Below are positions 7,135 through 62,938 of a stretch of 64,000 nucleotides of DNA, in pieces. This DNA comes from a virus (Duplodnaviria > Caudoviricetes), in IMG/VR virus record IMGVR_UViG_3300016672_000090, positions 18,739-82,738 of that record, one strand, 5' to 3'. The notes beneath the pieces were generated by a model, which worked only from the letters and a program-made list of their open reading frames with translations, ran no database searches and was not told the origin of the DNA. Position 1 is the stretch's first letter. Every line of letters begins with the position of its first letter. Both the position numbers and the translations under genes were made by a program.

Positions 7135-7184
7135 TGGGTTTTTCTCTGGCGATTTGGTGAAGACGCAAGATTATCACCGCGACC

Positions 7185-8318: not shown

Positions 8319-8363
8319 GGTTGTTTTCTCTCTGGCGATTGAGTGTTTGGTATTACGGGTTGA

Positions 8364-11972: not shown

Positions 11973-12101
11973 CCCAAACAGTAGACGAAAAAAAGCCACG
12001 CAGGCCCTAGAGCTTGCGCGGCTTTTTCCCACTTTAATCGCCAGAGAAAAGTGGCCGCATTATTCAGCGTCCGCACTCGATAAGCAAGGAACCTACCCGC
12101 C

Positions 12102-31433: not shown

Positions 31434-31470
31434 ATCGGTTTATCTCTGGCGATTTTAGTTATTTATGGGG

Positions 31471-49765: not shown

Positions 49766-51160
49766 TCAGTCCGCCTCTTGCACGTTTGTGACTAGGCTCT
49801 CATCGGTGATATACCGGTAGTGCTCTGGAAGCACTACGCCCGGATCGCCAACACTGTCGACGACCATATTCCCAAGCCGGGCGGATAGCGCCACCACATT
49901 GTTTTCTTTCATAAGCGCGTAGATATCCTTCTCAAGGATCTGAGCCTCGCCACGCTTTGCCCAGGCAGACTCGCGCCCGTATCGATTGAGCAGGAGCGTG
50001 CGCACCTGCTGCATAACTGCGCCAGAGTCGTAGACTGTAGGGATGGTGAGTGTCACTACCAAGGGGACTACAAGATCGACAACCGGGACGTACTTTATTT
50101 TGTAGCTGTCGTCGGCTCGCTGGATCACTGCCTTGATTTGCGACTCAAGAACCGCTTGCGTCGTACCGATCTTGCGGGCCGCGACAAACAAGGTGTTGAT
50201 ATTGTCCAGGCTGGCGCCACGCACAGCTTCTTCCTTGGATTCGTTCCAGATGCTGAGAAACGTCACAGGGCTGATAGCTTTACGGACCACAAAATCGAAG
50301 TTTGAGCCAAATACGGCGCTGTCATCGTAAATGCCGGGGTAGGAACACACCTCTCGCATTGTGCTGATGTCCATAGGGTCAGCACCCAATTGGCTGATCT
50401 CTGACAGCTCCATGGCTAGCAGTGCGTCAGCGGCGCCGCCGGTGTATTCAAAATAGAATTTAAGGCCGATAGAGAGCGCTACCGCTCCCTCCGTGTCCTG
50501 CACCGTGACATTGATGTTTTGCCCAACTTCGGGCTGGTAACCAGAAAGCCCCGCGATTCCGAATTGAAGGCTTAGCTCGCTCACCTCGTTGGATTTTATG
50601 TTGTAAACCCGATCACCATCCGCGATGTTTGCGAAGTTCGTGGAGTACTCAAACGTATCGACCAGCACAGCGGCGATAAATCCAATCTCTGGCGCGCTCA
50701 GGGGAATCGTATAGAACGGGATGAATACCCCCACCTGGTGCGTGAAGGTGCGGGAACTTACTTGCTTGGCCGTCATGTACCCTACTGCGCCAGCATCAAG
50801 GTTCACGCCAGCAGTCACCAGCCAATAGCGCCCAGAGGCGTCTTGAATCGATCTGCCAGCCAGTACCTGCACAGCCACCATGGACCCATTTGTCACCTTG
50901 ATGGTCGCAATGGATGGCGTACCAAAGGGCAGAATCCCCTTCACTGCCGCATCACTGCGTACTGTCACGTCGCGGGCCTTGGTGAACGGCTCCCCGGCGG
51001 TCACCTCCACCTGATTGCTCACATCCGCCAGCATGGCTGCCATTGAGGCGAGCCCCTGCGTGATCAGCGGATCACCAATCTGGTACCGCATCGCGATAGT
51101 CGGGAAGCTGGCGATTTCATTGACCGCGCTTTGAATGAACTCGTCTTTAGTAACTGCCAC
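49766..51160 (-). CDS. Baseplate J-like protein (P1 BplA-like)
   Basis: 464 aa; A.D..V..DAA.KGILP; baseplate operon. Confidence 0.65.
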   Translation of the reverse strand: MAVTKDEFIQSAVNEIASFPTIAMRYQIGDPLITQGLASMAAMLADVSNQVEVTAGEPFTKARDVTVRSDAAVKGILPFGTPSIATIKVTNGSMVAVQVLAGRSIQDASGRYWLVTAGVNLDAGAVGYMTAKQVSSRTFTHQVGVFIPFYTIPLSAPEIGFIAAVLVDTFEYSTNFANIADGDRVYNIKSNEVSELSLQFGIAGLSGYQPEVGQNINVTVQDTEGAVALSIGLKFYFEYTGGAADALLAMELSEISQLGADPMDISTMREVCSYPGIYDDSAVFGSNFDFVVRKAISPVTFLSIWNESKEEAVRGASLDNINTLFVAARKIGTTQAVLESQIKAVIQRADDSYKIKYVPVVDLVVPLVVTLTIPTVYDSGAVMQQVRTLLLNRYGRESAWAKRGEAQILEKDIYALMKENNVVALSARLGNMVVDSVGDPGVVLPEHYRYITDESLVTNVQEAD

Positions 51161-58504: not shown

Positions 58505-58729
58505 TTACTCCGTCATTAGCTGGTGACGCAACGCCTTTGCCTCACGCGCCAGCAGCTTGGAGTACTCAGCAGCCTCAACACTCTTTACCTCAAGGGCAAC
58601 CATAACTGCTGGCAGCTGCTTCTCTGGCACATACCGACCCCAGCCGTAAACGGTTTGGAAGGCTAAACCTAGCGCCTGCGCAACGGCCTTTTTATTGCCG
58701 AGGAGCTCAACCAATCGTGCTACTTCCAT
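58505..58729 (-). CDS. Cro-like HTH regulator
   Basis: LGNKKAVAQALGLAFQTVYGW...VP. Confidence 0.75.
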   Translation of the reverse strand: MEVARLVELLGNKKAVAQALGLAFQTVYGWGRYVPEKQLPAVMVALEVKSVEAAEYSKLLAREAKALRHQLMTE

Positions 58730-58832
58730 AAATTCCTACCTGAATTAATAAGCTGGTAATTATAATATTTATTCAGCATAACAGAAGCGCAAGGCAATCC
58801 GCGTCGACGCGCATTGAATATAGATCCAAAGT

Positions 58833-58866
58833 AAAAAAGCCCGCTCGATAGTCTCGATACGGGCTT
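58833..58866 (-). terminator. Intrinsic terminator
   Basis: AAGCCCG/CGGGCTT stem plus T6. Confidence 0.7.
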
Positions 58867-58868
58867 AA

Positions 58869-59020
58869 TGGGTGAGAGCGCCAGGGAATAACCCTGTCCT
58901 TGCTGAACTACCGACAGCTATAACCGGGCCGCCGGGCCGTGCGCTAGGCGGCGTCTCTAAGGATAATCGCGACCCCTAGTGTTTGTGCGCTGGAACTATT
59001 TTGTAGTGAGATTTGAACTC
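58869..59020 (-). ncRNA. Putative structured tRNA-like RNA (152 nt)
   Basis: GAGAGCG/CGCTCTC closing stem ending ACCCA, internal hairpins incl. TGAG-TTCAAAT-CTCA and CAGGG-TTATT-CCCTG, followed by a terminator. Confidence 0.45.
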
Positions 59021-59091
59021 ATTCGCTCTCTTGAAAGCTGTGTGAAAGCTACTGATTAAAGCCTATCACAGGCTGGACACCCGTACGCAGA

Positions 59092-59904
59092 TCAGCTCCA
59101 CAGACCCTGTTGCACGCCCCACTCACCGCGCAAGTACTCCAAGTTCTGCTGGATTTCAGCTTCACTCAGTACGCGATTGAAGTAAGCAACAAGCATGACG
59201 GTGGATTGGCCGGTGAAGCTATAAGGCGAAGCGCCAATTCTCAACGGTGGGCCGAAGGCCGCTGGGGGGCGCGAGAAGGTTGGCGCTCCAGATGCGTAGG
59301 CCTGCTTCAGCAACGTAGCGCCTGGTGTCGGGAGCATGCCCACCATATGGCGATCAGGTGCCCCAGTGAACGTACCAAAGATTGCCATCGGAGCCGCTGG
59401 TGGCAGCGATACGTTCAAATAAGCCGCTGGCGAACCTTGGGGAGTAACGCCATCACCCGGACAACTGGCTGCTGCGCCTACCACCTGACCGGCACCACTG
59501 AAGTTGGTGCCACACCACAGAACGTCGCCGTTACCGCTTCCGCTTGCCGGAGCGTTATAGCCGGATACGACTGGGATCGAAGCGCCAAAGTTGGCTGGGG
59601 CACTTTGTGGTTTTGCGATTGCTAGGATTGTCCCTTGCGGGCGGGCCTGCATGTTCATGCTGTAGTAGTTGCTGTGATCACAAACCGCGCCATTTTCCAG
59701 CAATGCTGGGGAGCCCACTTTAATCAGTGGGGCGCCGCCAGAAACAAAGTTCTGGATTTCGCGGCCACCCGAATCACGCAGGTAGTAGAGGCCCAGCAGC
59801 CCAGCAGTAACTGGCAAACGCGGAGTGACGTCCAAGAACGATTTAAGCGTTGGGTAGCCAGTACCTGGAAGGGTCACGCCGGTGAGTCGAAGAACGTTGC
59901 TCAT
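59092..59904 (-). CDS. ConA/LamG-like beta-sandwich protein
   Basis: Gly/Pro/Ala beta-rich; ends VAYFNRVLSEAEI typical of LamG-like domains. Confidence 0.55.
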   Translation of the reverse strand: MSNVLRLTGVTLPGTGYPTLKSFLDVTPRLPVTAGLLGLYYLRDSGGREIQNFVSGGAPLIKVGSPALLENGAVCDHSNYYSMNMQARPQGTILAIAKPQSAPANFGASIPVVSGYNAPASGSGNGDVLWCGTNFSGAGQVVGAAASCPGDGVTPQGSPAAYLNVSLPPAAPMAIFGTFTGAPDRHMVGMLPTPGATLLKQAYASGAPTFSRPPAAFGPPLRIGASPYSFTGQSTVMLVAYFNRVLSEAEIQQNLEYLRGEWGVQQGLWS

Positions 59905-59913
59905 AGAGTCGCC

Positions 59914-61473
59914 TTATTTCAGTAGGTAGTTATAAATATGGCGGCAAAGGATTTCGGCGCCGTAAACATTCAGGTGCAAGTCGTCCATCCACAGGCCAAG
60001 CCCGTTGGACTTTGCGAACAACGGAAAGATGGAGTGGATGTCAGCAAACTCGCAGCCCGTAGCACGGGCAATTTGCTGTCCAAGGTCACGAAAGGTAGTC
60101 AGGGGTTCGGCGGCCACACCGTTGCTGTCAGGGGGCGCGATAATGATGATGCCCACGTCCGGACGGCCTTCGCGATGCTTGGCGATCATGCCTGTCAGCC
60201 CGTCGATATACCCCTGCACATCACCAGCGCGATAATCATTGGTTCCCAGGCTGATAATCAGCAGGTCGGCTTCGAGATCGGACGCGTAATCCGCGATATA
60301 GGGCAGCATCTTTACCGCGTACCCGCCGCGCAATCCGCCGCGCCCACACTTCAAAACCTCAAAGCCAGAGACATCGCGCGTGGCGTAGAACCCGTACAAC
60401 GTGACGGTGCTGGCATTACCGGTCGTATCGATTTGCAGTTCATGGGCTGCATCAGGCAAGCCCTCGACAACGATCTTTTCCCGTGCACCCAAAACGCCTG
60501 AAGGGGCCGTGGCCCAGTCCCCGCCGTCAACCCGATAACGGAAAATGCCTGGCCCGCCCCGGTAGTAGATGACAATTTTGGTAGCGGTCAGGTTGCTGAT
60601 TTTTACGGTCGCGTTTGACAGGTTCGTGGTGATCGATCCACCGTCGAATGCACAGCCATATTCGGGCGGTAACGGCGTGGCACTGGCGTCGTACAAGGTC
60701 CACCCCGTACGCGAAGCGGTCACCCCGTTGGTCATGCGATTCAGCAAGGCGCTAATCCAGCCATAGCCCGCCCGGCCATAATCCAGCGCCAGCAAATCAC
60801 CCATTTTGTTGGGAATGGTGTCCAGGTCACTCCAAGAGTCACCGGCAAACATCACTTTCAACTTTGCGGAAGCGCCATTTTTCAAAAGCGCGCACTTGGC
60901 TTTGTAAAGCCAAAGTGATTTGCCTGTGGTTGTAAGTAGCTGGTTAAGATCAACAGGGAGATTGGCAATACTCGCTTCGACAATCGCCTTAACTGCCGCT
61001 GTCAAACTTGGACCAAGGCCCACGGCCTCCAACATGCCTTTATCTAACCAGATGGCAACCTTGTCGCCATGATCCATTAAAACTGGTACGCGTGATGGGT
61101 CATATGGCTGGAAGACCTCAAGGCCAAGTGCCTTACGAAGAACTGGCCCCAGCCCCAGAGCATCCAACATGCCTTTATCTAACCAGATGGCAACCTTGTC
61201 GCCATGATCCATCAGAAAAGGAACAAAGGAATCGTCCTGAAGTTTGACAGGCAACAAGCCAATGTCCGCTAAAATAGTAGGGCCGAGCCCCATCGCATCA
61301 AACTTGCTGTCATCAAACCAAGCGGGAACATTGCCTACTTCGTCAACAACGAACGGCACCATTTTGCTGTTCACAATGACGCGCAGTATTTTTTCAGCAA
61401 GCGCAGCATTCAACTCAGGCAGGTGAGCAACCTCAAGGATTTTAAGTGCAGCTGATAGCTCTACAGTCTCCAT
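59914..61473 (-). CDS. SGNH/GDSL hydrolase with N-terminal repeats
   Basis: AGDSWS, LGTND, D.LH blocks; three ~45-aa repeats. Confidence 0.82.
   Translation of the reverse strand: METVELSAALKILEVAHLPELNAALAEKILRVIVNSKMVPFVVDEVGNVPAWFDDSKFDAMGLGPTILADIGLLPVKLQDDSFVPFLMDHGDKVAIWLDKGMLDALGLGPVLRKALGLEVFQPYDPSRVPVLMDHGDKVAIWLDKGMLEAVGLGPSLTAAVKAIVEASIANLPVDLNQLLTTTGKSLWLYKAKCALLKNGASAKLKVMFAGDSWSDLDTIPNKMGDLLALDYGRAGYGWISALLNRMTNGVTASRTGWTLYDASATPLPPEYGCAFDGGSITTNLSNATVKISNLTATKIVIYYRGGPGIFRYRVDGGDWATAPSGVLGAREKIVVEGLPDAAHELQIDTTGNASTVTLYGFYATRDVSGFEVLKCGRGGLRGGYAVKMLPYIADYASDLEADLLIISLGTNDYRAGDVQGYIDGLTGMIAKHREGRPDVGIIIIAPPDSNGVAAEPLTTFRDLGQQIARATGCEFADIHSIFPLFAKSNGLGLWMDDLHLNVYGAEILCRHIYNYLLK
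61028..61212. repeat. 50-bp exact direct repeat (135-bp period) within the SGNH gene
   Basis: 61028-61077 equals 61163-61212; encodes MDHGDKVAIWLDKGML. Confidence 0.9.
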
Positions 61474-61476
61474 TAT

Positions 61477-61641
61477 TTAGCCCCTTCTTCTGACGACCCG
61501 CACGCCGTTAAATTCAACAAAACTTCCATTCGAAACAACCACCTTTGAATGAATCAAAAATCCAATATTTTTTGGACCGCTTACCGAATTAGTAGCCACA
61601 CGCAAACAGACCGAACGTAAAATCGGGAGCAATACGCCCAT
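61477..61641 (-). CDS. 54-aa ORF not in the ORF track
   Basis: MGVLLP...VVSNGSFVEFNGVRVVRRRG*; fills the gap between coupled genes. Confidence 0.5.
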   Translation of the reverse strand: MGVLLPILRSVCLRVATNSVSGPKNIGFLIHSKVVVSNGSFVEFNGVRVVRRRG

Positions 61642-61644
61642 GCG

Positions 61645-61932
61645 TCAACCCAAGTCCGCAAAGACACCAAAGGGTGCGCCCTTGTATTCAGGTCTACTTA
61701 CGATGAAAGTACCGGGACCTAACAGAGCTGTAGAGCGTGAGGCTTGATATAGGCGCCCTACTATGTTTCTGGCGCCGGGTGTGGCTTGCTTGATTTCAAA
61801 CTGCACACCGACCGGCGCCGACTCATCCGAGGCGGAATAGATACCAACCATGGCCACAGCTCCAGCAGAAACCACAATCTCACTCGATATGGCTGCTATA
61901 TTGCCTGGCGCTAATATTGATACTGCTGTCAT
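61645..61932 (-). CDS. Small beta-rich virion protein
   Basis: GGAGG RBS, first gene after a late promoter. Confidence 0.55.
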   Translation of the reverse strand: MTAVSILAPGNIAAISSEIVVSAGAVAMVGIYSASDESAPVGVQFEIKQATPGARNIVGRLYQASRSTALLGPGTFIVSRPEYKGAPFGVFADLG

Positions 61933-61967
61933 GCCATGCCTCCAAGCCAGCCACTTTATAAGCCCCC

Positions 61968-62009
61968 ATCTTATGGCGCCGAAAAGCACTTAAAAGCTCA
62001 TGGTTTGCA
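61968..62009 (-). promoter_or_regulatory. Putative late promoter (SGNH module)
   Basis: TGCAAACC; TAAGAT 30 nt after GCAAA. Confidence 0.72.
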
Positions 62010-62033
62010 CGATTTCAGCAACTTATAGCCAAC

Positions 62034-62058
62034 AAAAAACCCGCCATTTAGGCGGGCT
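62034..62058 (-). terminator. Intrinsic terminator
   Basis: CCCGCC/GGCGGG stem plus T-tract. Confidence 0.7.
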
Positions 62059-62075
62059 TCATGAGAGCTTCTTGA

Positions 62076-62558: not shown

Positions 62559-62938
62559 TCTGGCGATTCCGGTGGGTAGGTTGGGGCTTTTTTGCGGCGG
62601 TGGTTGTGCTCGATCAGCTCAACTATCGTTTTGACGCAATTCCTGCGCGCCAGCGTGTAGTTGCCCACAGTAGTAACCACTGTGATTGCGATGTTGCTTC
62701 CGGTCCTGGTACGAATGATTTCGGTAATGTGAGTGCGCTTGACCAGTACTCCACGATTCAAGCGAACTAGATCAGGCAGAGCCGCCTCGATAATTTTTAG
62801 TGTCATGCCGTCTGACAGCAACCACTCACAACCATCAGGCGTTATGCCCATCACATACTTATTGTCGGCCTTGAATGCCGCGAAGGTGCGGGCGTTCTTG
62901 CAATGAAATTGCGTTCCCCGGTACGCCTTCAAAATCAT
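62555..62938 (-). CDS. Stand-alone LytTR DNA-binding protein
   Basis: FKADNKYV...TLK.IE..L.DLVRLNRG.LV...I.EI. Confidence 0.7.
   Translation of the reverse strand: MILKAYRGTQFHCKNARTFAAFKADNKYVMGITPDGCEWLLSDGMTLKIIEAALPDLVRLNRGVLVKRTHITEIIRTRTGSNIAITVVTTVGNYTLARRNCVKTIVELIEHNHRRKKAPTYPPESPE

Follow-up and report, generated by a model that had tools for sequence, protein, structure and literature searches.

The non-coding gap at the end of the tail-accessory operon of this virus, in which a first-pass annotation had placed a tRNA-like cloverleaf, holds, within the span of that cloverleaf, a shorter but genuine conserved element that resembles an RNA and has as yet no class, as judged by comparison of its sequence with that of a distantly related phage. 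This core of 106 nt, situated where the operon ends, probably represents a small structured RNA. Our preferred reading, to which we give somewhat less than even confidence, is that it may form a conserved structured RNA element in the 3′ UTR of the late mRNA transcribed from the accessory tail cassette. Because the distant relative has kept both of the inner hairpins and the three blocks of sequence, a structured, probably regulatory RNA, as had been proposed, is still the best account of the region, but not in the form of a tRNA mimic.

The window, that is, the whole stretch of 64,000 nt analysed, comes from an 82.7-kb IMG/VR virus record with an estimated completeness of 96%. The tail and portal genes of this phage resemble P1 gp25 and related proteins, and its nearest annotated relatives are Pseudomonas phage-plasmids of 81-95 kb. 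The gap is 362 bp long and lies between a 270-aa gene and a Cro-like gene, with the following features around and within it:

59914-61473, minus strand: 519-aa SGNH/GDSL esterase gene, in the same cassette as the 270-aa gene (Pfam PF13472, E = 2e-11)
59092-59904, minus strand: 270-aa gene, the terminal gene of the accessory cassette (from the ORF list; PHROG phrog_4390)
58866-58833, minus strand: intrinsic terminator, AAGCCCG...CGGGC followed by T6
58730-58817, minus strand: promoter and leader region of the Cro-like/baseplate/portal operon
58505-58729, minus strand: Cro-like gene, heading the baseplate/gp25-like/portal operon

No Pfam match was obtained for the 270-aa protein, whose homologues fall into 15 clusters at 54-97% identity. 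The terminator was missed by the consensus scan because of a direct repeat in its loop, TATCGAG-AC-TATCGAG (58833-58860), an uncommon feature in such a loop. At 58760-58795, upstream of the Cro-like gene, the sequence TATGCTGAATAAAT-N3-TATAA is conserved with relatives (L061:3645-3680) and probably serves the baseplate/portal operon as a late-type promoter.

A single homologous locus was found for this region of the window, in L013, a contig of a P1-like phage with a portal 50% identical to that of the window, where a gap of 288 bp follows a 270-aa gene (78% identical to its window counterpart). The match over the core was detected by nhmmer (E = 0.005) and by R1, a covariance model built on a single sequence (25.8 bits, E = 6e-4). 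Local alignment of one gap against the other gave a score of 40, compared to 20.8±2.7 for dinucleotide shuffles, none of which (0/1000) reached 40, a distance of 7 sd. DNA homology of the cassette with L013 spans window positions 60957 to 59117; at the third codon positions of the 270-aa gene the two phages are 41-45% identical, nearby neutral sites being saturated. The conserved parts are:

59003-58898, minus strand: conserved 106-nt core, with its counterpart at L013:3356-3461
58993-58986, minus strand: block A, CCAGCGCA, 8/8 bases identical, predicted to be single-stranded
58979-58957, minus strand: hairpin H1, CTAGGGG-loop-TCCTTAG, with TCGCAGG-loop-CCTGCGA at the same place in L013
58952-58928, minus strand: hairpin H2, GCCGCC-loop-GGCGGC, with CGAGAG-TAGCG-CTCTCG in L013
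58928-58908, minus strand: block C, CCCGGTTATAGCTGTCGGTAG (CCCGGTnAnAGCTGTCGnTAG; as RNA, CCCGGUnAnAGCUGUCGnUAG), 18/21 bases identical in L013

In H1, five of the seven pairs are changed on both sides, and all seven are paired in both sequences. The claim of column-wise covariation in H1 is weakened because an alternative local alignment sets the CTAGG of the H1 stem in the window opposite a CTAGG in the H1 loop of L013. The 5′ strand of H2 is at the same place in both phages and differs at five of six stem positions, and both sequences pair, but H2 could not be scored column by column because the loops differ in length (13 nt in the window, 5 nt in L013). The H2 loop of the window opens with TAGCGC (the UAGCGC block), a conserved block whose first five bases, TAGCG, start the loop in both phages. 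What holds robustly is that a strong hairpin is found at each of two places in both sequences. The evidence for compensation comes from n=2 sequences, the only two that carry the element. The conservation and covariation that had been asked of the cloverleaf was thus found in part: the two inner hairpins and the three blocks are kept in L013 with compensatory stem changes, whereas the outer stem, the T-loop hairpin, the CAGGG hairpin and the tail are missing there. Conservation of the sequence and of the hairpins is in this respect a direct observation.

The minimum-energy fold of the segment between blocks A and C has the same layout in both phages, namely 6 nt, a hairpin, 4 nt and a hairpin, the 4-nt linker between H1 and H2 ending in AC. 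This segment folds with z = -1.83 in the window and z = -2.34 in L013. For the window, the value of -1.83 on the sense strand of the cassette compares to -0.17 on the antisense strand, and H1 of the window folds on the sense strand only, because of two G-U pairs. In the consensus fold of the two sequences, neither block A nor block C is paired, and no closing helix for the core was supported by both phages.

The strand and the link to the cassette are observed equally directly, as in both phages the core lies 3′ of the SGNH-esterase/270-aa cassette and 5′ of an intrinsic terminator (3465-3497 in L013), and the two terminators point the same way. A consensus scan detected no promoter on the cassette strand between the stop codon and the core. 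A coding reading was considered and rejected: a frame that runs open through L013 has 'PAH.H' in common with the window, but it lacks a start codon and is interrupted by a TAG in the window. More generally, no ORF with a start codon was shared over the core, and its translated frames gave no Pfam or PHROG match. A site of inversion or recombination was likewise rejected, there being no second copy of the core in the genome. Separately, 3′ of the terminator both phages carry the 9-mer ACTTTGGAT (window 58831-58823; L013:3565-3573), at differing distances from the terminator; this sharing is marginal, with about 0.04 occurrences estimated by chance.

The first-pass annotation had described a longer object on the same strand, a cloverleaf of 152 nt with an acceptor-like stem, and all the hairpins that it listed are indeed present on the minus strand. 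The features proposed beyond those of the core are:

59030-59024, minus strand: GAGAGCG, 5′ strand of the proposed acceptor stem, in the window only and without an L013 counterpart
59021-59007, minus strand: TGAG-TTCAAAT-CTCA hairpin with a T-loop-like loop, in the window only and missing from the L013 gap
58896-58882, minus strand: CAGGG-TTATT-CCCTG hairpin, in the window only and not in L013
58880-58874, minus strand: CGCTCTC, 3′ strand of the proposed acceptor stem, not conserved
58873-58869, minus strand: ACCCA tail, not conserved

Both strands of the stem GAGAGCG/CGCTCTC exist, with CGCTCTC at 58880-58874 as described, but GAGAGCG had been placed 10 bases off, at 59020-59014 instead of 59030-59024. 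With the corrected position, the distance covered from stem to tail becomes 162 nt instead of 152 nt. A perfect 7-bp long-range stem is to be expected by chance in this gap, with a mean of 1.2 per gap shuffle and at least one in 59% of the shuffles. Since the closing stem matches the chance expectation and is missing in the only relative, the tRNA-like cloverleaf fails. The whole 162 nt fold with z = -2.07 (5/200 shuffles fold as well), and the inner 120-nt part of the window has a fold no more stable than those of its shuffles (z = +0.2). The CAGGG hairpin, which had been likened to a T-arm, does not bear out the comparison either, as this arm beside the 3′ strand has a 5-nt loop, TTATT, and is not found in L013. 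The TTCAAAT hairpin sits at the position of a D-arm, the order of the arms does not fit a cloverleaf, and the tail reads ACCCA and not NCCA. On the two sequences available, the conserved element includes neither the outer acceptor stem nor the T-loop hairpin nor the ACCCA tail, all three being decoration specific to the window.

Searches for known RNA families pointed in the same direction. ARAGORN detected 0 tRNA or tmRNA genes in the window, and Rfam at the gathering score gave nothing across its whole length, so that the suggested check against families such as c4, tmRNA and Y RNA returned no family match in the window. At E <= 10 over 58600-59300, no tRNA (RF00005), tmRNA, C4 or Y RNA was found, and the two weak matches obtained in the region were driven by the terminator alone; the Rfam models of known riboswitches and cis-regulatory leaders, run on both homologues, also gave only weak, terminator-driven matches. 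The C4 model (RF01695) had no match at E <= 1 in the whole 82.7-kb genome, and a Ro60/TROVE gene (PF05731) was absent from the phage genome, with positive results in control genomes. When antisense targets were sought for the hairpin loops, complementary matches in the phage genome stayed at chance level, and no match of at least 12 nt to the core was found elsewhere in that genome. The proposal of an antisense immunity RNA is consequently left with no above-chance target for the hairpin loops in the phage genome and no C4 match. As the features behind the RNase P-processed, tRNA-like reading (acceptor-like stem, ACCCA, T-loop hairpin and CAGGG hairpin) are absent from L013 and not beyond chance, this reading is not to be carried forward.

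The cloverleaf had also been connected with a leader motif, to two halves of which the 6-mers GCGAUU and CUGGCG are complementary. The motif, AAUCGCCAG (AATCGCCAG), is itself well represented, with 6 exact copies in the window compared to an estimated expectation of about 0.5. The AATCGCCAG copies are located at:

7146-7154, minus strand
8332-8340, minus strand
12036-12044, plus strand
31446-31454, minus strand
51108-51116, minus strand
62560-62568, minus strand

Five of these six fall in leaders, with 0-20 nt between them and a start codon, and mostly as AATCGCCAGAGA(A/G)AAA, and in the relative L061 the motif precedes the homologous 160-aa gene as ggAATCGCCAGatg (L061:3111-3123). AATCGCCAG therefore looks like a recurrent 5′-leader or transcription-start motif of this phage group. 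Both 6-mers are present in the gap as reported, but their link to AAUCGCCAG was treated as chance because they are about 80 nt apart, match over at most 6 bp each, and are both missing from the L013 gap.

The cassette that precedes the core is not a fixed part of this phage group. The closest relatives of the window phage have portals 81-92% identical to its own, and the blastn homology of L046, L061, L062, L064, L089 and L090 begins at window 58787-58817, where the Cro-like operon has its promoter region. On the upstream side of this boundary, the closest relatives carry a 160-aa gene, and directly after it come a terminator and the Cro-like operon. Because homology in them starts only at about 58790-58817, the window carries an insert of about 3.3 kb, defined by comparison of window 59092-62075 with L061:3121-3700, which contains the esterase and 270-aa genes together with small ORFs and the region examined here. 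Unrelated phages with lysis genes downstream have a 270-aa protein that is 97% identical, and so the cassette is swapped between phage types. In the contigs with 270-aa homologues, L013 excepted, similarity to the window stops exactly at the stop codon, and nearly all of these contigs have a terminator within about 70 bp on the 3′ side and then lysis or other genes. In one prophage (L098, 3805-4280), the cassette stands at the prophage end, adjoining a tRNA-Pro(GGG) gene / attachment site. Three GCAGTGCCAAA repeats that resemble integrase arm sites lie there between the cassette and tRNA-Pro(GGG), and the host genes MerR, ihfA-like and pheT lie beyond it.

The element itself is rare. With nhmmer, blastn and the R1 covariance model, it was not found in 50 portal-anchored loci of related phages or in 15 whole related virus records; a 16.9-bit match in L094 was judged to be chance. 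It was not found in 3 Pseudomonas phage-plasmids either. Searched by blastn against phage and plasmid collections, the window region gave no match and the L013 gap matched only through its terminator. Exact and degenerate patterns run over IMG/VR and GTDB (185,579 species, one genome each) returned only matches in coding sequences, judged to be chance, and searches anchored on the 270-aa and 519-aa proteins in IMG/VR and the genome collection yielded nothing. Among loci of 270-aa homologues in metagenome assemblies, the element was again not found, L013 apart. Its absence from the closest relatives and from all other copies of the cassette means that the element is dispensable.

Read from 5′ to 3′, the preferred structured RNA would consist of block A (CCAGCGCA), H1, the 4-nt linker ending in AC, H2 with a loop that starts UAGCG, block C (CCCGGUnAnAGCUGUCGnUAG) and the terminator. 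It would be co-transcribed with the cassette, because no promoter was found between the stop codon and the core, and the transcript would end at the terminator. In this arrangement, the two hairpins would hold the invariant single-stranded blocks as sequence-specific recognition sites, either for a target RNA, by base pairing, or for a protein, much as in a 3′-UTR-derived small RNA. As invariant single-stranded blocks suggest sequence-specific recognition, a 3′-UTR-derived regulator or protein site is likelier than mere protection from exonucleases, and any target would be in the host, because the phage genome has none above chance. Transcription, any processing and the function of the core are in this account what we infer.

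A bolder form of the same reading would make the two cores the first two members of a new phage RNA class, a two-hairpin scaffold presenting CCAGCGCA and CCCGGUnAnAGCUGUCGnUAG that travels with a receptor-modifying tail cassette between P1-like Pseudomonas-type phage-plasmids and acts in trans on a host RNA or protein, as a 3′-UTR-derived regulator or as a decoy; taken as a whole, we consider this proposal unlikely. Should the core work as an RNA, a mobile tail-accessory cassette of phage-plasmids, a group for which no regulatory RNA besides C4 turned up in the analysis, would carry it as a non-coding passenger, and it would also offer a defined object of 106 nt for testing. The main value of the analysis at present is a negative one, in that the tRNA-mimic/RNase P reading is not supported.

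Four other explanations were weighed against the structured RNA. In the first, the core would be a purely cis-acting module of the 3′ end, with no target in trans, the hairpins and the terminator shielding the cassette mRNA from 3′ exonucleases or tuning termination and read-through towards the late operon that comes next. Its position directly before an intrinsic terminator in both phages, with late structural genes next, fits such a role, and so does the GCCCG of block C, which in both sequences is a repeat of the terminator's own 5′ strand and could compete for its 3′ strand, CGGGC. Nevertheless, the GCCCG/CGGGC match amounts to 5 bp of a very common terminator sequence, hairpins that act as stabilisers need no invariant single-stranded blocks of 8 nt and 21 nt, and a separate promoter, conserved in relatives without the element, serves the next operon. 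We hold this module to be an improbable explanation of the core.

The probability of a relic or module boundary at the DNA level is also low. Here, the core would have no RNA function and would derive from decayed pieces of tRNA genes or of an att site that moved with the cassette, or would be a linker for the recombinational exchange of tail modules. The cassette is mobile, as seen from the 97%-identical 270-aa protein in unrelated phages and from the end of homology at its stop codon, and in prophage L098 it adjoins the tRNA-Pro attachment site. Moreover, the window has CTAGGGGTCG (10 nt) in common with the tRNA-Pro of L098 (p ~0.04), and block C is similar to the acceptor strand of a tRNA joined to the beginning of its D-arm. 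The similarity to tRNA-Pro is however missing in L013 (p = 0.34), the region has no match to the tRNA model at E <= 10, and the genome holds no second copy that could serve as a recombination partner. A neutral relic would also not keep its blocks invariant amid compensated turnover of the stems and saturation of the synonymous sites.

That the core has no function whatever, being residual spacer similarity combined with ordinary GC-rich hairpins, is highly unlikely. Only two sequences carry the element, all close relatives dispense with it and the window core folds no better than shuffles, as such an explanation would have it; against it, the alignment score is 7 sd above shuffles while nearby neutral sites are saturated, and the same two-hairpin layout is found in both sequences. 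Barely credible is the cloverleaf of about 160 nt, processed by RNase P like P1 C4 and P4 CI into an immunity antisense RNA or tRNA decoy, since its 7-bp stem, ACCCA tail and TTCAAAT-loop hairpin, although they exist in the window and the whole 162 nt folds with z = -2.07, comprise a stem expected by chance and are all absent from L013, its T-loop-like hairpin stands at the D-arm position, its 3′-side arm has a 5-nt loop, its end is ACCCA and not NCCA, its hairpin loops have no complementary site above chance, and ARAGORN, Rfam (no tRNA, tmRNA, C4 or Y RNA even at E <= 10) and the search for a TROVE/Ro60 gene were negative.

Compared to known systems, the region has in common with tRNA, tmRNA and YrlA the features of the window that drew attention to it, a T-loop-like TTCAAAT loop, a 7-bp terminal stem and a C-rich 3′ tail. 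Unlike in those RNAs, however, these features are not conserved, the order of the arms misfits, none of the three RNAs is detected in the window by ARAGORN or Rfam, and a Ro60 gene is lacking.

C4 owes its specificity to its hairpin loops, which differ from one heteroimmune phage to another. The core is like P1 C4/P4 CI (RF01695) in being a small phage RNA with two internal hairpins between conserved flanks, in a phage-plasmid of the P1 type. It differs from them in several respects: neither the core region nor the genome matches the C4 model, the closing acceptor-like stem of the window is not conserved, the core has no complementary target in cis, and it lies at the 3′ end of a tail-accessory operon and not upstream of an operon of the icd/ant type. 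Two reviews (PMC4919922, PMC11143913) count C4 among the substrates of RNase P.

The put antitermination RNA of HK022 also has similarities with the core, which would likewise be a phage RNA of similar size with two stem-loops; the core, just upstream of a terminator, would in this comparison act in cis on the transcribing polymerase. The put RNA is located just downstream of early promoters and has its conserved residues in stems and bulges, whereas those of the core are in the flanks and the operon downstream of it has its own promoter.

Small RNAs derived from 3′ UTRs are found in enterobacteria, CpxQ, SroC and DapZ being examples. Although the core differs from these in being phage-borne and extremely rare (two sequences), it resembles them in its position between a stop codon and the mRNA's own terminator, without a promoter of its own in the consensus scan, and in its conserved single-stranded stretches, which are candidate seeds.
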